From Patescibacteria group bacterium (GTDB taxonomy: Bacteria > Patescibacteriota > JABMPQ01 > JAQVVF01), in assembly GCA_041662665.1 (NCBI GenBank), contig JBAZSC010000001.1, positions 385,511-449,510 of the forward strand: a stretch of DNA of 64,000 bases. The letters run 5' to 3'. Within the stretch, counting starts at the first letter, position 1. Each line of letters begins with the position of its first letter. A model generated the notes under the pieces. That model made no database searches. It saw nothing but the letters and a program-made list of their open reading frames with translations, and had not been told where the DNA came from. Shown one piece after another: positions 706 through 38,137 of the stretch. A program made the position numbers and the translations under genes.

Positions 706-737
706 CTAAAAAAAATAAAACCCTAGCAATAGGGTAT
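706..737 (-). terminator. Intrinsic terminator (minus strand) ACCCUA-GCAA-UAGGGU followed by a U-run; copy 1 of a repeated cassette
   Basis: The hairpin lies at 720-735 with an A-run at 706-719 on the plus strand (a U-run on the minus transcript), directly after the stop of 740..1069. Confidence 0.6.
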
Positions 738-739
738 TT

Positions 740-1069
740 TTAATGAGCTTGATTTTGATTTTCTTGTCTAGAATGATAAATTTCTAGACGATAAATTGGA
801 ATATTTTGAGAATTTTGAAAACAAATTTTTACATATATTCCTCTAATCTCAAAAACTTCAATACGTACGCCACAAACTTCAAAGTATTGTCCTGCAAAAA
901 GTACGACTTGTCCTCTCAAAGCGATTTCGTATGCATTATTTACTGTAATTCCATTTTTCGTATGTTCAACATTGAAATAAACAGTAGATTTTGTTATCTT
1001 TTCTACTGTTAATTTATTATCATCTCCGATCATCACTGATTCGCCAGATTTTCTAGTTAGAAAGAGCAT
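740..1069 (-). CDS. CsrA-like RNA-binding protein, apparent tandem duplication of the CsrA fold (109 aa)
   Basis: N-terminal MLFLTRKSGESVMIGDD matches CsrA beta1-beta2 (MLxLxRKxxExxxIGxD). C-terminal GVRIEVFEIRGIYVKICFQNSQNIPIYRLEIY matches CsrA beta3-beta5 and the RxEIY motif. A strong SD, GGAGGGAGAGAG, is adjacent to the ATG. Confidence 0.45.
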   Translation of the reverse strand: MLFLTRKSGESVMIGDDNKLTVEKITKSTVYFNVEHTKNGITVNNAYEIALRGQVVLFAGQYFEVCGVRIEVFEIRGIYVKICFQNSQNIPIYRLEIYHSRQENQNQAH

Positions 1070-1130
1070 CTCTCTCCCTCCTGCGTGGTTGTGAGAGCAA
1101 AAAAATAATAACTGAAAATTAAAATTTTGT

Positions 1131-1158
1131 CAAATAAAAAACCCTAATTAATAGGGTA
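1131..1158 (-). terminator. Intrinsic terminator copy 2 (ACCCUA-AUUAA-UAGGGU plus U-run), immediately followed by a TTGACA -35 for the next minus-strand gene
   Basis: Near-identical to the hairpins at 720 and 1566; the shared string is ttgtcaaataaaaaaccctaat. Confidence 0.6.
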
Positions 1159-1495
1159 TAGTTCTTAAGGTACTTTTTTCATGCATTTGATCATATATTT
1201 CTTGGCGAAGAATTTGAATTGTAACTGGTGCTTCAAAACAGATTCTGACAGAATTCTTGTTAACTTGCATGATCGTTACTCTGACTCCAGATACAATAAA
1301 ATATTTTTGCGCAGAATGCTCAAAATTGCCTTGGACAGCTAAAGTTTTGCTGTTTGATTTTGTTGTACCATTCGCGCCATCTAAATATTCCGTAATTTTG
1401 AAAGTTGCAGTCCTTCGCGATGTTCTGATTAAGGTAATTTTGCATGAGTCATCGATCCTTACAGACTCGTACAAGTTCCTTTCTAGAAACAGCAT
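1148..1495 (-). CDS. CsrA-like RNA-binding protein paralog (115 aa; start revised to the internal Met)
   Basis: MLFLERNLYESVRIDD at the N-terminus. C-terminal half GVRVTIMQVNKNSVRICFEAPVTIQILRQEIY aligns to CsrA VxVxxxxGxxVRIGIxAPKxVxIxREEIY. SD GGAGGAG lies 7 nt upstream of the Met at 1495. The ORF-track start at 1558 lacks an RBS. Confidence 0.5.
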   Translation of the reverse strand: MLFLERNLYESVRIDDSCKITLIRTSRRTATFKITEYLDGANGTTKSNSKTLAVQGNFEHSAQKYFIVSGVRVTIMQVNKNSVRICFEAPVTIQILRQEIYDQMHEKSTLRTIPY

Positions 1496-1557
1496 TTTTT
1501 TCTCCTCCTTTGCTTGACTGAACAACTGGAATCTTATCAGAAAACGATATTTTGTCA

Positions 1558-1584
1558 AATAAAAAACCCTAATGAATAGGGTAA
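1558..1584 (-). terminator. Intrinsic terminator copy 3 (ACCCUA-AUGAA-UAGGGU plus U-run)
   Basis: Same cassette as at 720 and 1140, directly after the stop of 1605..1871. Confidence 0.6.
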
Positions 1585-1604
1585 TGAAAGATCAATCTGT
1601 ATAT

Positions 1605-1871
1605 TTATTTGTCTGGAAAATCTTGGATGCAGGACTTATGTTGTTCTGTCAAATATTTGTTATCTGCATGCCATTGGATATTCAGAGTTACAAAAGCAGA
1701 CACCAAGAATACAAACGATATTCCAAAGAAAAATGCAAGAGTGCGTCGTTTTCGATTCAAGTCTAGAATAAGGATTAGAAAAGAAATTCCGCTAACAAAG
1801 AACAAAATTCCAAGAACAAAAAGAAATATTGGCAAGAAAGCATACAAAAGTGCGGCATACATTGTATCCAT
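1605..1871 (-). CDS. Small integral membrane protein (88 aa, two predicted TM helices), hypothetical
   Basis: Two hydrophobic segments. Strong SD GGAGGAGGAA adjacent to the ATG at 1871. Followed by its own copy of the cassette terminator. Confidence 0.5.
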   Translation of the reverse strand: MDTMYAALLYAFLPIFLFVLGILFFVSGISFLILILDLNRKRRTLAFFFGISFVFLVSAFVTLNIQWHADNKYLTEQHKSCIQDFPDK

Positions 1872-1949
1872 TTCCTCCTCCTTTGTCCTCCGTGAGCAAC
1901 GTTAAAGAATACATTTTCTTGATAATATTGTCAATATTTTTCTTTCCTC

Positions 1950-1977
1950 TTGACAATATAATATTTTTTGCTAAACT
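1950..1977 (+). promoter_or_regulatory. Candidate sigma-70 promoter for the rplJL leader (TTGACA-16-TAAACT)
   Basis: TTGACA at 1950-1955; weak -10 TAAACT at 1972-1977. Confidence 0.3.
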
Positions 1978-2090
1978 ATAATTACTTACAAATAAATATT
2001 CCAGAGACAGTAAGTTTCAGCACAAGCTGAGTAATTCTTGCCGAGGAAAAAACGAGTAACTAGTCATAAGTAACTAGTAATTAGTTTATC

Positions 2091-2119
2091 ATCCTACGGC
2101 AAAGTAGGATTTTTTAATA
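2091..2119 (+). terminator. Leader attenuator-like intrinsic terminator in the rplJ 5' leader
   Basis: ATCCTAC-ggcaaa-GTAGGAT followed by TTTTTT. No plus-strand gene lies upstream, and the rplJ start is 92 nt downstream. Confidence 0.5.
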
Positions 2120-2210
2120 AATAAAAAGTTGAATTTTCGCAGCGCCTGCATCAACGCACATCAGCGTAGATCAGCGTTAGAATCTGCGTTTAATCAGCTT
2201 CTACGAATAT

Positions 2211-3604: not shown

Positions 3605-5923
3605 CTATTTCATCTCAAACATCAACACTTTATTATTACTCAACACGTATCCCTTATTTTTACTTTCATCAATAAATATATCTTTAGCATTTTTGAAATC
3701 AGTATTTGCATATTGCTTCAAAACATTTCCATTTTTATCTAAGACGGCCAATCTTTCGTTAGCTGGATCTAAGACATACAAATTATTATAATCTAATAAT
3801 GTAAATATTTTACTTCCAGAAGCAAAAGATTTATCTAAATTTTTAATTGAAAAATCTTCTTTCTTTCCAGACAAAAAGCTGACAATCTCACCATTATCTT
3901 TCAAGACATAAATACTGCCATCAATTGCAAATGAATTAGCATCTTTAATTCCATTATCAACTCCATCTAACCAAGCCTCTCCTTTATTATAGCCATCAAT
4001 TGTTCTTTGATGCTTCCAGATTTGATCATTAGTATTATCCAAAACATATAATGCATCAAAATAATTTGCAAAAGCAGTAATTTTTTCTTTTGAATCTAAT
4101 TCAAAATCAACTTTATAAATATTATTATCATCTAATACAAATTCAGAAACAGAATTTGAATCAGTCAAAAACTCAATATAATCTTTAAATAAATTTATTG
4201 CGCCATATTTTAAATTGCCAACGCCATTTGATTCATTAGATGCTTTATCTAAAGATTTTTTGTTTTCGTTAACTAAAAATACTTCTGATTTATTTTCATC
4301 ATAAGAATACAATTTTCCGCCAAGTCCTAAAATTCCTTTAGCATTAAAATCAGCTGGCAAAGAAATTGAATCTAAATTTTCTATTCTTGTAACATTATTA
4401 ATTTTATCAAGATCTGTTGTTACTCCTTTCAACAAATCTTCAGCATCTTTTTGAAATTTTTTATCTTTTTTGGCATCAATCAAAATAGTCGTTGCTTCAA
4501 GAAGAAAACCTTTTGCTTTTTCTTTATCGCCATAGATTAATGAATCAGAAGCTTTCTTTTTCAAATCTTGAGCTTGGACAATTGAATTTTCATCAACTTT
4601 TTTTGTTACAGCAACGTCTTTGTTTTCTGGACCTTTGGAATGGAAAAACATAAAAAATCCAAAAATAAAACCTATGCCAACAACACTGCCTAAAATTATT
4701 TTTGATTTATTTGGTAAGCCAGCAACGAATGAAAATGCATCAGCAAAGACACCTTTTATTTTATCTAATCCTAATTTTGGTAATTTATTTTCTGATGGCT
4801 GTATTCTTGGAGATAGATATGATCGAGTTGAAATCGCTTTTCTGCTTGTTATTCTTCTTTCTGGAACTTTAGATTTTGGTTTTAACGACTTTATAGAACC
4901 AGCAACTTTTTCGAAAACAGGCAAGGCATTATCTTTGAATCTCAAAATATTATCTTTTGCTAATTCAATATATTTATTGAATCCTGAAGATTGTTTTTCT
5001 CTTTTTCTTGGCAATGTTTTTAAAATGTCGTCATCAGTATCAATATCTAAAGCCGATCTTTTTTGTTTTGCTTCATGATAATTATAAACTTTGTAATCTT
5101 CATTTGCTGGACGAACTGGTGGCACTGATTTTTTTTCATCAATTGAACCAACTTCATTTTTATTGGCTCGCTCATTAATTAAATCTTCAATTGTCTGTTT
5201 CTTCGTTCTAGGTTTTTTCAAGAAATCAAATTCTTCTTCATAAGCTTCTTTTTCATCTTTTAATTCCAAAACAACAGCTGATAAAGCCGAATTATCGAAA
5301 TTTTGCAGTAAATTTTTGAAATTAGAAATTGCATCTTTAGCAGAGAATTGCGATAAAGTTCTTTTAACTTTTTCACTCGAAAAATATTTCAAAAAATTCG
5401 GAGAAACCATTAATAATTTATCATTAATCTGCATATCTCCAGAAACAACATTAATAAAAGTTTTCATCGGATTTGATTGAGAAGAGCTTGGACCAGTAGT
5501 AATATCAATGACTTCATTTTGCCGATATAAAAATATTTTTGTTGATCCAGTATAGGCGATATGTATCTTATTAAAACTTAAAGCTGCAATTCCAACATGC
5601 AATTTATCAATCCATTCTACATAGCCTTCAGCTGCTAATGTTGATAATGCCTGATTTAATTTGCTCAAAGCTGATTCAAAATGCCCAAGCATTTGTGTCT
5701 TATTTTCTGATGTTTTGAATCTAAAATATTCCTGTTTAATGCATTCAGAAATAATCTCTGACATCTTTGAAGCAAAATCAGTATTCATATCAACATCAAC
5801 AACAACTGCTAATTTTCCTAATTCATTCATTTTTCTATTTGGCGCATCAAAAACAAAAGACTTGCTAAATGTCTCATTAGTTGAAATATCATGAACTGTT
5901 AAATTTTCGTATTTTATTAACAT
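3605..5923 (-). CDS. Large single-pass membrane protein (772 aa): cytoplasmic N-domain plus charged linker, one TM helix, extracytoplasmic beta-propeller-like repeat domain
   Basis: TM segment IILGSVVGIGFIFGFFMFF in mid-protein; C-terminal repeated IYVLD/YVL...G motifs. No confident family assignment. Confidence 0.45.
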   Translation of the reverse strand: MLIKYENLTVHDISTNETFSKSFVFDAPNRKMNELGKLAVVVDVDMNTDFASKMSEIISECIKQEYFRFKTSENKTQMLGHFESALSKLNQALSTLAAEGYVEWIDKLHVGIAALSFNKIHIAYTGSTKIFLYRQNEVIDITTGPSSSQSNPMKTFINVVSGDMQINDKLLMVSPNFLKYFSSEKVKRTLSQFSAKDAISNFKNLLQNFDNSALSAVVLELKDEKEAYEEEFDFLKKPRTKKQTIEDLINERANKNEVGSIDEKKSVPPVRPANEDYKVYNYHEAKQKRSALDIDTDDDILKTLPRKREKQSSGFNKYIELAKDNILRFKDNALPVFEKVAGSIKSLKPKSKVPERRITSRKAISTRSYLSPRIQPSENKLPKLGLDKIKGVFADAFSFVAGLPNKSKIILGSVVGIGFIFGFFMFFHSKGPENKDVAVTKKVDENSIVQAQDLKKKASDSLIYGDKEKAKGFLLEATTILIDAKKDKKFQKDAEDLLKGVTTDLDKINNVTRIENLDSISLPADFNAKGILGLGGKLYSYDENKSEVFLVNENKKSLDKASNESNGVGNLKYGAINLFKDYIEFLTDSNSVSEFVLDDNNIYKVDFELDSKEKITAFANYFDALYVLDNTNDQIWKHQRTIDGYNKGEAWLDGVDNGIKDANSFAIDGSIYVLKDNGEIVSFLSGKKEDFSIKNLDKSFASGSKIFTLLDYNNLYVLDPANERLAVLDKNGNVLKQYANTDFKNAKDIFIDESKNKGYVLSNNKVLMFEMK

Positions 5924-24334: not shown

Positions 24335-25051
24335 ATGCCAGAAAGAGAACAATTAACTCAAAAAGATATTCAAGGCCCAGAAAAAGAAACATCAGAGCCA
24401 GGTCTTGAAATTGCAAGAACACCTGAATCAGAAACAGTTGTAGATTTAGCTAATGAACTGCACGAAGCAATACAAAATGATTCGCCAATTACTTATGGAA
24501 AAGTTGAAGACTTTAGAGAAGCTTTGGACCAATTAAAATTTAATATTGGCGGAGAAATGATGACAGCCGAAGAAGCAAGAAAGATTCCTGATTTAAAATT
24601 GAATATGGAAATTTGGAAAAGGATAAAAGTCGGTGATTATTCGACTTCGACTATTACTCAAATGACTTATGTAAGTCTAGAGGTAGCAGATATTCTTAAA
24701 AACGTAGGAACTGTGCGTTTGCTAAACGTAAAATATTTTCCTAGCTCAATATTGAGAAAATTATGTGAACGAAAAGGTTATCTTACGCTTGGAATTGAAG
24801 AAATTTCTGATCAAGATGCAGAAATTATTAGTAATCATCAAGGAGAGCTATTTCTTGATAATATAACTCGATTGTCAGTTAAGCAAGCTGAATTTTTAAG
24901 TCAGCATCGAGGACAGCTTTCATTGGCTGGTCTTGAATCATTACCAGATCAAGCAGCAATATATTTCATTGATTTTAAGCATTTTCTTAATGTACAAAGT
25001 AGAATTACAACGCAAATTGGTAGATTAAGAAAAAGGAGTAGAAAGAAATAA
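24335..25051 (+). CDS. Hypothetical protein, paralog A of a tandem duplicate (238 aa), C-terminal leucine-rich-repeat-like segment
   Basis: The N-terminal ~110 aa are ~90% identical to 25082..25594 at the DNA level. The C-terminus has ~24-aa L-rich repeats (ELFLDNITRLSVKQAEFLSQHRGQLSLAGLESLPDQ). Confidence 0.5.
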   Translation: MPEREQLTQKDIQGPEKETSEPGLEIARTPESETVVDLANELHEAIQNDSPITYGKVEDFREALDQLKFNIGGEMMTAEEARKIPDLKLNMEIWKRIKVGDYSTSTITQMTYVSLEVADILKNVGTVRLLNVKYFPSSILRKLCERKGYLTLGIEEISDQDAEIISNHQGELFLDNITRLSVKQAEFLSQHRGQLSLAGLESLPDQAAIYFIDFKHFLNVQSRITTQIGRLRKRSRKK

Positions 25052-25081: not shown

Positions 25082-25594
25082 ATGCCAGAAAGAGAACCAC
25101 TAACTCAACAAGATATTCAAGGTCCTGAAAAAGAATCAGAAAAGATAGGTCTTGAAATTGCAAGAACACCTGAATCAGAAACAGTTAAAGATTTAGCCAA
25201 TGAATTTCACGAAGCAATACAAAATGATTCGCCAATTACTTATGGAAAAGTTGAAGACTTTAGAGAAGCTTTAGGAAAATTGAAATTTAATATTGGTGGA
25301 GAAATGATGACAGCCGAAGAAGTTAAAAAGATTCCTGATTTAAAAATGAATATGGAAATTTGGGAAGAAATTAGACGCCGAGATTATAGAAGAGTAAGGG
25401 AGCTCACTTTCATAATTCCCGATATCTATCATATTATTAGTCAAACTGGTAGAGTTTTTTCTTTAGAAAAAATTGATTCGTTGCCTGATGAAATTGCATT
25501 ATTATTTTTAGATTTTTCTTTCCAAGTAAAGATTTCAGATAACTTCAAAAAACATTTGACTGAATTGTATATAAAAAGAAGCAATAAATCTTAA
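25082..25594 (+). CDS. Hypothetical protein, paralog B of the tandem duplicate (170 aa), shorter divergent C-terminus
   Basis: Shares the promoter-proximal sequence (tttttagttttttaca...ATGCCAGAAAGAGAAC) and the N-terminal domain with 24335..25051. Confidence 0.5.
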   Translation: MPEREPLTQQDIQGPEKESEKIGLEIARTPESETVKDLANEFHEAIQNDSPITYGKVEDFREALGKLKFNIGGEMMTAEEVKKIPDLKMNMEIWEEIRRRDYRRVRELTFIIPDIYHIISQTGRVFSLEKIDSLPDEIALLFLDFSFQVKISDNFKKHLTELYIKRSNKS

Positions 25595-35321: not shown

Positions 35322-36611
35322 ATGAATGGATTACCGCCAATTGATTTTTTTGGCCAACTGCGTGATTTTTTCAGCACGTTTGGTTTTGTTTTTGTCCATG
35401 CCTGGTGGGCGATTATTTTAGGTTTAATTTTCTTAGCCTATTACGCTTTTTATCGCATTCAAAATAATAAATTCTTAGCTGGCGTTGAATATGTTTTGCT
35501 TACTGTATCTGTTCCAGCTGATAGCGAAAAAAGTCCAAAATCAATGGAACAAGTTTTGGCAGGATTCCATGGCATTTATTCTCCTCCAAACTGGTCTGAA
35601 TTTTGGATCTTGGGAGAACAACAAGCCCAAGTTAGCTTAGAATTGGTCGGTATCAATGGCCAAGTCAGATTTATTATCAGAACACCTGTCAAACTTCGTG
35701 ATGCTGTTGAAGCTCATATTTATGCTCATTATCCAGATGCTGAGATTTTTGAAATTGAGGATTACGTTGATGCAATTCCAGACAAATGGCCAAATGAACA
35801 ATACGAACTTTTTGGCACTGATTTTAAATTAATGATGCCAGATTCATATCCTATCAGAACATATATGCAATTTGCTGAAGAATTTGATAAAGGATTCATT
35901 GATCCAATTTCTGCTTACACTGAAGTTATGGGAAAATTAAACGAAGGCGAACAGATCTGGCTTCAGATAACAATTAGGCCAGTTGATGATGCTTGGAAAA
36001 AAGAAGGCGAGAATATTGCCGCAAAACTTATTGGAAAAAAAGTTGATATTCCTGAAGACTTTTTCAAAAAAACAGTCGTTAAAGGCTGGCACAATGTTTT
36101 AAGCGCTACTGATGCTATTTTGCAAGTTCCAGCAGCTGAATTAAAAGAACAAAAAAGAGAAGTTGAATCTTTAATGCAATATCTATCTCCAGGCGAGCAA
36201 GATGTTGTGACTGCTATTCAAAGAAATATCGCCAAAGTTGGTTTTGAAACAAAATTTCGTTATATTTATGTTGCCAAAAAAGATGTATATCAAAAAGGTC
36301 GCGGAGTTGTTGCTATTTTAGGCGCTTTAAAACTTTTGCATACTCAAAATCTCAATTGGTTTTGGTTAGATAAACACACAAAGACTAAGCTTGATTATTG
36401 GAAATTTAGAATTCCTAAAAGACAAAAGAAAATTGTTAGATATTATAAAGAGCGCGATATGGATGCCGGAATTCCGCCATGCATATTGAGCATTGAAGAG
36501 TTAGCTACTTTATTTCACTTTCCTTATGTTTCTGTTGAATCTCCTTCTGTTATCAGCGCATCAGCTAGCAAAGCTGAAGCTCCAAGTAATCTGCCTGTTG
36601 GAAGGCAATAG
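35322..36611 (+). CDS. Membrane protein (two N-terminal TM helices plus large soluble domain), partner of the downstream ATPase
   Basis: TM segments FGFVFVHAWWAIILGLIFLAYYAFY. The stop lies 26 nt before the ATPase start. Confidence 0.45.
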   Translation: MNGLPPIDFFGQLRDFFSTFGFVFVHAWWAIILGLIFLAYYAFYRIQNNKFLAGVEYVLLTVSVPADSEKSPKSMEQVLAGFHGIYSPPNWSEFWILGEQQAQVSLELVGINGQVRFIIRTPVKLRDAVEAHIYAHYPDAEIFEIEDYVDAIPDKWPNEQYELFGTDFKLMMPDSYPIRTYMQFAEEFDKGFIDPISAYTEVMGKLNEGEQIWLQITIRPVDDAWKKEGENIAAKLIGKKVDIPEDFFKKTVVKGWHNVLSATDAILQVPAAELKEQKREVESLMQYLSPGEQDVVTAIQRNIAKVGFETKFRYIYVAKKDVYQKGRGVVAILGALKLLHTQNLNWFWLDKHTKTKLDYWKFRIPKRQKKIVRYYKERDMDAGIPPCILSIEELATLFHFPYVSVESPSVISASASKAEAPSNLPVGRQ

Positions 36612-36637
36612 AAATTTAATTGTTAATCATTATTTTT

Positions 36638-38137
36638 ATGGCTAATAGCGATATTTCGAATTTTGCAACTACCAATTACCGCAATAAAAAAGTAGTTTTC
36701 GGTATAAAAAGAGATGACAGAAGAAGGCACATGTATGTTATTGGAAAAACAGGTATGGGCAAAACAAACCTTATGGAAAATATGGCGATTTCTGATATTC
36801 ATGCCGGAAATGGACTTTGTGTTGTTGATCCTCATGGTGAATTCGCTGAAAAAATGCTCGATTTTGTTCCTGCAAATCGTATTAATGATGTTATTTATTT
36901 TAATCCTGGAGACATGGATTTCCCAATTGCATTTAACGTGATGGAAAATGTTAATCCTGCATACAAACATTTGATCTCTTCAGGACTTATCGGTGTTTTC
37001 AAAAAAATCTGGGCAGATTCTTGGGGCCCTCGTCTTGAATATGTTTTAAGAAATTCTATTCTAGCTTTGCTTGACTATCCAGGTTCAACAATGTTAGGCA
37101 TTATGAGAATCTTAGTTGACAAAGAGTATCGTAAAAAAGTTATTGAAAAAATTCAAGATCCAGTTGTCAAACAATTCTGGGTTGAAGAATATTCAAAATA
37201 TCCTGACAAATTTCAAGCAGAAGCAATCGCTCCTATTCAAAACAAAGTTGGACAATTCTTATCCATTTCTTTAATTAGAAATATTGTTGGCCAATCAAAA
37301 TCAACAATAGATATGCGTGAAGTAATGGATAACAAAAAAATTCTAATTCTTAATTTAGCAAAAGGCCGAGTTGGTGAAGATGCCTCAGCCTTATTTGGTG
37401 CAGTTATTATTACTAAGATTCAATTAGCTGCAATGTCGCGCGTTGATATTCCAGAAGAGGAAAGAGCAGACTTTTATCTCTATGTCGATGAGTTTCAAAA
37501 TTTCGCAACTGAATCTTTTGCTGATATTCTGTCAGAAGCTAGAAAGTACCATCTTAATTTAATTATTGGCCATCAATACATTGGTCAGCTAGAAACTGGC
37601 GGTTCTACAAAAGTCCGAGATGCTGTTTTTGGCAATGTCGGAACAATCGCTTGTTTCAGAGTTGGAGCAGCTGATGCAGAATTCTTAGTCAGCGAATTTG
37701 AGCCAATATTTACAGAAATTGATTTAGTTAATTTAACCAAATATAATATTTATTTGAAATTGATGATTGATGGTATTGCTTCTCAAGCTTTTAGCGCTAC
37801 AACTCTTCCTCCTTCCAAAAAAATCGAGGGACATAAAGAAAAAATCATCAAAGTTTCTCGCGAACGTTATGCGCAACAAAGAGAAATTGTCGAAGATAGA
37901 ATTTCAAAATGGTCAGAAACAATTGTCAGAGATGAAGCAACAATGCCACAAGCCAGATATTTTCCAAAGAAAAGAACTGAAAGTTCAGAGCAACAACAAA
38001 TACATCAGCCATTTAAAAAAGCATTTAGCGAAATTTTGAAGGGTAAATTACAGGTAGAAGAAAAAAAACCGCAAGAAAAACCGCAAGAAAAACCAAGAGA
38101 AACATTAAAGCCAGGACAAGTAATCAAAATGGATTAA
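36638..38137 (+). CDS. P-loop ATPase of the TraD/TrwB/VirD4 coupling-protein / HerA-FtsK (DUF87-like) clade, lacking its own TM segment
   Basis: Walker A VIGKTGMGKTN followed by VVDPHGEF. Walker B FYLYVDEFQNF. Conserved RKYHLNLIIGHQ. Start taken at MANSD (36638). Confidence 0.6.
   Translation: MANSDISNFATTNYRNKKVVFGIKRDDRRRHMYVIGKTGMGKTNLMENMAISDIHAGNGLCVVDPHGEFAEKMLDFVPANRINDVIYFNPGDMDFPIAFNVMENVNPAYKHLISSGLIGVFKKIWADSWGPRLEYVLRNSILALLDYPGSTMLGIMRILVDKEYRKKVIEKIQDPVVKQFWVEEYSKYPDKFQAEAIAPIQNKVGQFLSISLIRNIVGQSKSTIDMREVMDNKKILILNLAKGRVGEDASALFGAVIITKIQLAAMSRVDIPEEERADFYLYVDEFQNFATESFADILSEARKYHLNLIIGHQYIGQLETGGSTKVRDAVFGNVGTIACFRVGAADAEFLVSEFEPIFTEIDLVNLTKYNIYLKLMIDGIASQAFSATTLPPSKKIEGHKEKIIKVSRERYAQQREIVEDRISKWSETIVRDEATMPQARYFPKKRTESSEQQQIHQPFKKAFSEILKGKLQVEEKKPQEKPQEKPRETLKPGQVIKMD

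Follow-up and report, generated by a model that had tools for sequence, protein, structure and literature searches.

Two adjacent genes on a Patescibacteria contig encode two-repeat CsrA-family proteins predicted to retain one RNA-binding face

The global regulator CsrA, a textbook case, works as a homodimer: its two identical faces bridge two GGA sites on RNA, and RNAs that offer many such sites titrate it. Canonical CsrA, RsmA and RsmE (PF02599; PDB 1Y00, 2BTI, 2JPP) are chains of 57-80 amino acids (aa) that form obligate domain-swapped homodimers with two identical RNA sites. What, then, is a CsrA-like chain of 109 or 115 aa, and why should two such chains be encoded side by side? These questions are raised by two genes, here called W1 and W2, at positions 740-1495 of a 64,000-nucleotide (nt) stretch of the genome of a Patescibacteria group bacterium (assembly GCA_041662665.1, contig JBAZSC010000001.1, positions 385,511 to 449,510), hereafter the window. 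An original prediction, made from the letters of this stretch, had described them as two tandem CsrA-like genes whose products might be covalent pseudo-dimers. Our preferred explanation, to which we assign a probability of about 0.68, is that each protein is a single-chain intramolecular pseudo-dimer with one binding face, a monovalent GGA binder that regulates translation.

Both predicted genes were found as open reading frames (ORFs) on the minus strand, and both products exceed the gathering threshold (27 bits) of the Pfam CsrA model PF02599, W1 with 53.2 bits (E 2.8e-14) and W2 with 55.7 bits (E 4.9e-15). The four peptide strings quoted for them are exact, and the PF02599 search proposed as a check gave two matched stretches in each protein rather than an absence of CsrA matches. 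With a hidden Markov model (HMM) of canonical CsrA built from 112 short homologues, aa 1-37 of W1 matched model positions 1-37 (E 6e-11) and aa 68-108 matched positions 18-58 (E 6e-10); in W2, aa 1-27 matched positions 1-27 (E 8e-5) and aa 67-109 matched positions 14-56 (E 9e-14). Because the two matches in W1 share model positions 18-37 (in W2, 14-27), strands 3 and 4 occur twice in W1. The halves also resemble each other: an hhalign comparison of the N-half and C-half profiles of 41 two-repeat proteins gave a probability of 97.2% (E 4.3e-11), with aa 4-41 of W1 aligned with 55-91. By these sequence comparisons, each protein consists of two CsrA repeats in one chain, the repeats being homologous to each other. 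The gap between the HMM matches of W1 is 30 residues long, compared with the 28 needed for strand 5 plus strands 1' and 2', so that W1 approximates CsrA(1-48) followed by CsrA(1-61), with no linker and one helix only. The two proteins are 36% identical to each other across their full length (pairwise alignment), which makes the two-repeat architecture older than the divergence of W1 and W2.

In CsrA-type dimers, RNA lies on two symmetric patches, each formed by strand 1 of one protomer together with strands 4-5 and the helix of the other (PMC5864733); in RsmA-type dimers, an R6-E46 salt bridge links the subunits, and RNA binding requires R44 (PMC3791407). In W1 and W2, the strand 1 RNA-contact motif L2/L4/R6 is present at the N-termini (MLFLTRK and MLFLERN, respectively), and the strand 5/helix motif V.V.R.E[IV]Y is present in repeat 2 (IPIYRLEIY and IQILRQEIY). 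In W1 this second motif supplies R94, E96, I97 and Y98 as the equivalents of R44, E46, I47 and Y48, and leads into the sole C-terminal helix (aa 95-107). The inner copies, placed by the hhalign register, are degenerate in W1: L57 stands for R6, N44 for R44 and A46 for E46. In alignments of 31 and 42 compact homologues (a class described below), the only invariant residues are R6, R94/R97 and E96/E99; M1 and L2 come close to invariance in both, as L4 does in the alignment of 31.

The same pattern was seen in a wider sample of 98 two-repeat CsrA proteins that we collected from metagenomes. Fifty-one of these are full tandems (median 143 aa) that keep both sites, with L2, L4 and R6 present in 50, 50 and 51 of them in repeat 1 and in 44, 50 and 49 in repeat 2, and R44 and E46 in 46 and 50 in repeat 1 and in 50 and 51 in repeat 2. 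The other 47 are compact (median 107 aa), W1 and W2 included; they keep L2, L4 and R6 in repeat 1 (46, 47 and 47) and R44 and E46 in repeat 2 (47 and 47) and seldom have the inner counterparts (2, 5 and 5 for L2, L4 and R6 in repeat 2; 5 and 3 for R44 and E46 in repeat 1), an asymmetry that is partly circular because the compact class is defined by the absence of the inner elements, although the retention of the outer residues is not circular. Since the outer residues are kept and the inner ones lost, one RNA-binding face is under selection and the other is not, and W1 and W2 keep the residues of just one of the two canonical GGA-binding surfaces.

Structure prediction is consistent with this arrangement. 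AlphaFold2 modelled W1 from a 3-sequence alignment with a predicted local distance difference test (pLDDT) of 91.4 and a predicted template modelling score (pTM) of 0.83, and W2 from a 42-sequence alignment with five of five models at pLDDT 83-87.5 and pTM 0.77. Both models contain strands 1-5, a loop of about 10 residues at the position of strand 1', strands 2'-5' and a C-terminal helix, nine strands in all. The strands of repeat 1 span residues 2-7, 11-14, 18-25, 29-38 and 41-51 in W1, and 2-7, 11-14, 18-25, 29-37 and 45-53 in W2; only strands are seen up to residue 94 (W1) or 97 (W2), with the helix after. The two proteins are thus predicted to fold as compact, self-contained monomers. When the W2 model was compared with the PDB using Foldseek, the only family-related matches were non-swapped RsmN and RsmF monomers (probability 0.94-0.98, E 0.2-0.35), with template modelling scores of 0.63-0.67, normalised to targets of 64-66 residues, over 99-105 alignment columns. 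Because strands 1 and 5 of one RNA face lie in the same chain in RsmN and RsmF, this match uses both ends of W2. Among viral predicted structures, ten align with the W1 model over about 100 columns (E <= 1e-3), and for most of them the root-mean-square deviation is 2.3-3.8 A; they are 81-201 aa long, six of them 81-114 aa, and include a 'Carbon storage regulator' of 114 aa from an uncultured Caudovirales phage.

A precedent is man-made. Re-CsrA is an engineered fusion of CsrA(1-44), the linker GGGGSGGGGS and full-length CsrA, both CsrA parts being of E. coli sequence, whose crystal structure (PDB 5Z38) shows a compact core with one helix, resembling the native swapped dimer, and which has a single ligand site and retains RNA binding (PMC5864733). 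Like W1 and W2, it joins a first copy that lacks the helix to a second that is complete, and its intact site is made of strand 1 of the first copy with strands 4-5 and the helix of the second; it follows that a head-to-tail chain can fold as an intramolecular pseudo-dimer. However, Re-CsrA has identical copies and a 10-residue linker, whereas W1 and W2 are natural and linkerless, with repeats about 15% identical in strands 3-4, and their second site has been erased by substitutions rather than by loss of the helix alone. RsmN and RsmF (PDB 4KJI, 4K59) build one face with strands 1 and 5 of a single chain, within which the R6-E46-type salt bridge also forms; RsmN has a helix of about 16 residues inserted between strands 2 and 3, lacks a C-terminal helix and still dimerises to give two sites (PMC3791407). 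W1 and W2 differ from these proteins in that, by AlphaFold2, strands 2 and 3 have no helix between them and the C-terminal helix is present; each chain also includes another full repeat. With canonical CsrA they share the family by profile, the strand 1 motif ML.L.R, the strand 5/helix motif R.E[IV]Y and the strand order within each repeat, and the chemistry of GGA recognition on the conserved face is presumably the same; they differ in being one chain in which two repeats have diverged and which has a single helix and a single conserved site.

The half-versus-half homology, the compact nine-strand monomers with a C-terminal helix that AlphaFold2 returned for both proteins (the structural check that had been suggested) and the Re-CsrA precedent together lend support to the covalent pseudo-dimer of the original prediction. 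Its account of the N-terminal module needs amendment: this is indeed a CsrA repeat, but it comprises more than strands 1-2, being complete though degenerate, and the pseudo-dimer is asymmetric, with one conserved RNA face. The architecture had also been called unusual, and it is rare but, as the 98 two-repeat proteins attest, not unique.

These proteins were found by an exhaustive profile search that returned 1,355 proteins at E <= 1e-3; among the best 150, most were ordinary CsrAs and dozens were two-repeat. All two-repeat proteins with a source name are labelled just 'carbon storage regulator'. The full tandems (e.g., P0004, P0007 and P0017; 120-206 aa) resemble W1 and W2 in having two repeats per chain. 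They differ in keeping each of L2/L4/R6 and R44/E46 in both repeats (44-51 of 51 each), usually with linkers of about 10-30 residues, and many also retain the first helix; to judge from their residues, they probably retain two sites, and the compact forms probably evolved from such fusions. Compact members have strands 1-4 in the N repeat and strands 2-5 plus the helix in the C repeat, within a single ORF of about 86-130 aa. The smallest members, P0142 and P0081 among them, are 86-92 aa long; inner strands 5 and 1 are mostly gone from these, and strands 1-4 are followed by 2'-5'. By HMM coverage W1 and W2 fall within this class, with longer degenerate middle segments of 30 and 39 residues. Over strands 3-4, the median identity between the two repeats is 45%; at the upper end stand P0016 (95%) and P0155 (90%), and at the lower end W1 (15%), from which it follows that duplication occurred repeatedly and that the W1/W2 lineage is old. 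The W1/W2 subfamily itself is very rare, with three clusters among 5.8 billion proteins, and a word-index homologue search with W1 or W2 gave matches only from the same organism and one relative. Profile scans of genome contigs with the closely related compact set found canonical single-domain CsrA genes only, with no two-domain ORF in 80 loci, and a scan with another alignment (A1) gave no matches. No match to W1 or P0043 was obtained by tblastn against 50,697 phage genomes, P0081 found only canonical phage CsrAs there, and the PHROG library holds no model of a double CsrA architecture. The annotated phage CsrAs identified with tblastn (PHROG 9500 'CsrA-like regulator'; F116-like Pseudomonas phages) are single domains of 50-65 aa, unlike W1 and W2; the likeness to mobile-element homologues lies in the phage-like and conjugative contexts of other compact forms and in a fold common to viral predicted structures.

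Several other proteins came to light during these searches. P0136 (248 aa) has four CsrA repeats and corresponds to two compact single-chain units fused in tandem. Three very long proteins (P0018, P0019 and P0143; 1429-1599 aa) resemble the central part of the double-CsrA profile in 3-8 segments (E ~1e-8 to 1e-5), and these may be either unrelated strand-rich repeats or CsrA-like modules inside giant proteins. Another Patescibacteria-labelled metagenome-assembled genome encodes an ordinary single-domain CsrA by ComEC-like genes, with no flagellar neighbour visible (L065 5989-6252), so CsrA in Patescibacteria is not limited to the two-repeat form.

The contexts of four other compact members (listed with the window features in Table 1) include phage-like, prophage-like, conjugative-element-like and chromosomal loci. 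In three of them (L086, L088 and L089) the compact CsrA gene adjoins another CsrA-family gene, and for two of the pairs the surroundings are prophage-like or conjugative-element-like.

We propose the following for W1 and W2. Two CsrA repeats, joined head to tail without a linker, would build the intertwined strand core that is normally made by two subunits. The surviving face would be composed of strand 1 of repeat 1 (L2, L4 and R6) and of strands 4'-5' and the helix of repeat 2 (R94/R97, E96/E99 and the I and Y of the motif), the symmetry-related face having lost its binding residues (L57, N44 and A46 in W1) and having no helix. Such a protein would bind GGA monovalently, for example at Shine-Dalgarno regions, and repress or modulate translation site by site; with a single face it could not bridge two sites, nor could decoy RNAs with several sites capture it through avidity. 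The monomeric state of W1 and W2, their RNA binding with its specificity, and their targets are what we infer rather than observe.

Apart from the partial circularity noted above, which counts against this explanation, several findings speak against it. The NCBIfam CsrA equivalog models (TIGR00202 and NF002469) are not reached, with scores of 50.6-53.7 bits against cut-offs of 70.1-73. For W1, just two of the five AlphaFold2 models were confident, and these came from the 3-sequence alignment. The pairing of strands, including the position of strand 1 beside strand 5', is our inference from indirect evidence. Foldseek searches of the PDB with both models gave nothing significant, the top matches other than RsmN and RsmF being weak lipocalin-like barrels; a chain-wise search is, however, poorly suited to this question, because native CsrA chains are non-globular halves of swapped dimers and Re-CsrA is deposited as two chains. 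Finally, the W1 strand at residues 41-51 is almost invariant between orthologues, and the 'dead' face could thus have another function.

That conserved inner strand would also fit a scheme in which the pseudo-dimers associate further (W1-W1, W2-W2 or W1-W2) through the degenerate face or strand edges, rebuilding a bivalent or multivalent binder with the paralogues as partners. So would the compact genes that stand beside a CsrA-family gene (W2 with W1, and pairs of 63 and 97 aa at L086, 117 and 57 aa at L088, and 110 and 92 aa at L089), as well as P0136, which joins two compact units in one 248-aa chain. However, the relative L083 has the W1 orthologue without a partner, the AlphaFold2 monomers are confident and self-contained (pTM 0.77-0.83), the engineered Re-CsrA acts as a single-site species, and W1 and W2 have separate promoter-like sites and terminators; we consider further association unlikely. 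Were there no duplication at all, each protein would be a single CsrA domain interrupted after strands 2/3 by some 45 inserted residues, as RsmN and RsmF are by their inserted helix, and would form an intermolecular homodimer with two identical sites. A profile alignment to PDB CsrA sequences alone gives this impression, pairing query 1-22 with CsrA 1-22 and query 68-107 with CsrA 18-57 like one split domain, and RsmN and RsmF are the sole CsrA-family structural matches. The split domain suggested by that alignment was rejected on the half-versus-half hhalign homology (E 4.3e-11). In addition, the N part matches model positions 1-37, covering strands 3-4 twice; a continuum leads from full CsrA-CsrA fusions, some with repeats 85-95% identical, to compact forms of 86 aa; and the middle is modelled as strands, not helix, with retention of the C-terminal helix that RsmN lacks. 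We regard the insertion as very improbable.

The remaining explanation would have mRNA regulation abandoned, the proteins serving as decoys or protein-binding modules (e.g., with a partner on the remodelled face) or persisting as decaying relics of a mobile element. Other compact forms do lie in phage-like and conjugative-element contexts, the two-repeat neighbour of P0124 has lost R44 and E46 entirely, and neither FliW nor a CsrB-like RNA antagonist was seen in the window. Nevertheless, all canonical RNA-contact residues of one face are invariant across the family, the ratio of nonsynonymous to synonymous substitution rates (dN/dS) is 0.35, expression signals are intact, and the locus is a chromosomal one whose place between the YceG gene and the L10 operon is shared by a relative. 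There is in our view only a slight chance that RNA regulation has been given up, and we return to the monovalent RNA-binding pseudo-dimer as the favoured explanation.

The deposited protein P0003 ('MAG: carbon storage regulator [Patescibacteria group bacterium]'; 115 aa), encoded on a 645-kb contig, is identical to W2 and starts at the same ATG. A 136-aa version of the W2 ORF, from a TTG at 1558, was rejected; the Shine-Dalgarno sequence AAGGAGGAG, a promoter-like site within the extension and the start of P0003 all favour the ATG at 1495. In the region 600-2250, seven terminator-like sites were found compared with 0.6 expected, and the ACCCTA...TAGGGT hairpin has three copies in the 64 kb, all flanking the W1 and W2 genes, with none expected by chance. 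Upstream of W2 and W1, the terminator-plus-promoter module is identical at 35 of 36 nt. This identity, despite only 36% identity of the proteins, suggests that a unit of terminator, promoter and gene was duplicated, or that the regulatory module has been homogenised or constrained. W1 and W2 thus appear, by consensus matches only, to carry independent transcription signals. Both leaders have GGA inside their Shine-Dalgarno sequences, but their RNA structure is not significant (z -0.3 and +0.8), and we do not claim an autoregulatory hairpin.

The window has a G+C content of 32% and includes genes of housekeeping function (YceG, the L10/L12 operon with its leader RNA, an mraZ-fts-mur cluster, hrcA-grpE-dnaK-dnaJ, a ribosomal protein cluster with rpoA, murA and mreB). 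Two independent metagenome contigs and a relative have the locus in the same place, between YceG and the L10 operon; it is chromosomal, flanked by housekeeping genes and not within a mobile element. In that relative (L083 3689-4446, compared with window 740-2210), the interval bounded by the L10 operon and YceG contains a W1 orthologue alone, with neither W2 nor the gene for the 88-aa membrane protein; the promoter and terminator sequences of W1 are conserved. Between W1 and its 78%-identical orthologue P0002, dN/dS is 0.35 and substitutions are concentrated in the loop 54-59; W1 is under purifying selection.

Table 1. Positions of features at the W1/W2 locus, of other compact CsrA genes and of additional window features.
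Feature	Locus	Position	Strand	Description
W1 gene	window	740-1069 (including stop)	-	ORF with ATG start; 109 aa; two-repeat CsrA-family protein
W1 repeat 1, aa 1-53	window	911-1069	-	Strands 1-4 canonical with L2, L4, R6; N44/A46 replace R44/E46; no helix after strand 5
W1 repeat 2, aa 54-109	window	743-910	-	Strand 1' degenerate (VVLF, L57 for R6), modelled as a loop; strands 2'-5' canonical
W1 Shine-Dalgarno AGGAGGG	window	1076-1082	-	7-13 nt before ATG; includes GGA motifs; read from sequence
W1 promoter-like site TTGACA-17-TATTAT	window	1105-1133	-	Sigma-70-like consensus scan, 11/12 matches; consensus match only
W1 terminator-like hairpin ACCCTAttgcTAGGGT, then T-run	window	720-735	-	ACCCTA-loop-TAGGGT
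W2 gene	window	1148-1495	-	ORF from ATG at 1495; 115 aa; two-repeat paralogue of W1
W2 repeat 1, aa 1-56	window	1328-1495	-	MLFLERN strand 1 with L2, L4, R6; strands 2-4; divergent strand 5 (aa 45-53); repeat boundary taken from alignment with W1
W2 repeat 2, aa 57-115	window	1151-1327	-	Strands 2'-5'; R97/E99 equivalent to R44/E46; C-terminal helix aa 98-109
W2 Shine-Dalgarno AAGGAGGAG	window	1502-1510	-	7-15 nt before ATG; read from sequence
W2 promoter-like site TTGACA-16-TAAGAT	window	1531-1558	-	Extended -10 TG; sigma-70-like consensus scan
W2 terminator-like hairpin	window	1141-1157	-	ACCCTA-loop-TAGGGT; T-tail extends into the -35 of the W1 promoter-like site
Terminator-like hairpin of upstream 88-aa membrane-protein gene (1605-1871)	window	1566-1582	-	Belongs to the repeated terminator-promoter module preceding W2
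Terminator-plus-promoter module ATACCCTATTnATTAGGGTTTTTTATTTGACAAAAT	window	1541-1585; 1116-1160; also 720-735		Copies upstream of W2 and W1
L10 leader RNA (RF00557)	window	1983-2124		44.3 bits, gathering score 44; the promoter of the 88-aa gene lies in the same divergent intergenic region
772-aa ORF	window	3605-5923		No Pfam match; follows the L10/L12 operon downstream; equivalent position in L083 (1-2391) occupied by a 796-aa gene, compared by position only
Paralogous ORFs, 238 and 170 aa	window	24335-25051; 25082-25594		Adjacent; near-identical N-terminus MPERExLTQxDIQGPEKE...IARTPESETV; no Pfam match
429-aa ORF	window	35322-36611		Adjoins the coupling-protein homologue; no Pfam match
TrwB/TraG-type coupling-protein homologue	window	36620-38137		Type IV secretion; E 7e-12
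P0043, 97 aa	L084			Phage-like contig (small terminase, DNA methylase, helicase); no neighbouring CsrA-family gene recorded
P0072, 97 aa	L086	7816-8294 (with neighbouring gene)		Prophage-like (S24 repressor, integrase, HNH); canonical 63-aa CsrA directly before
P0060, 117 aa	L088	8001-8549 (with neighbouring gene)		Conjugative-element-like (RepA, DtrJ-like, several DUF families); canonical 57-aa CsrA directly after
P0124, 110 aa	L089	8001-8658 (with neighbouring gene)		Chromosomal; adjoining 92-aa two-repeat protein without R44 and E46

As for antagonists, the original prediction that no FliW partner is in view holds for the window: none of the 20 ORFs tested had a FliW or flagellar Pfam match, and Rfam on the 64 kb gave only the L10 leader and two tRNAs, with no CsrB-like RNA seen. 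The short C-terminal tails of W1 and W2 would also speak against FliW-type control.

The fold family, the chemistry and an engineered equivalent were known beforehand; a natural, asymmetric, one-faced single chain, and the spread of such chains, are new. We found no description of a natural tandem or single-chain CsrA in an incomplete literature set that included two surveys of the whole family based on PF02599 (PMC7366521, PMC13443453). Tentatively, and at somewhat less than even odds, single-face single-chain CsrAs may form a recurrently evolved, undescribed class of monovalent Csr regulators, produced by internal duplication and by erasure or deletion of the inner strands 5 and 1. With the four other compact members, this class would span Patescibacteria chromosomes as well as phage-like, conjugative-element and chromosomal loci.

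A hard-wired one-faced dimer would be a natural experiment on how far CsrA function requires bivalency, a question so far addressed only with engineered proteins, Re-CsrA among them. In the heterodimers of Mercante and colleagues from 2009, one face was reportedly enough for binding, and two were needed for full regulation of two-site targets. The same chain would offer a stable monomeric scaffold for structural and design work. It would also mean that the label 'carbon storage regulator' covers an unrecognised subclass, some members of which lie on phage-like and conjugative elements. A class of monovalent regulators, if real, would let mobile elements override host Csr control, and would provide a minimal genome with a Csr regulator that needs neither FliW nor a sponge RNA. 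The finding also raises the question of what role Csr-type control plays in this Patescibacteria genome, where no flagellar genes were seen in 64 kb.

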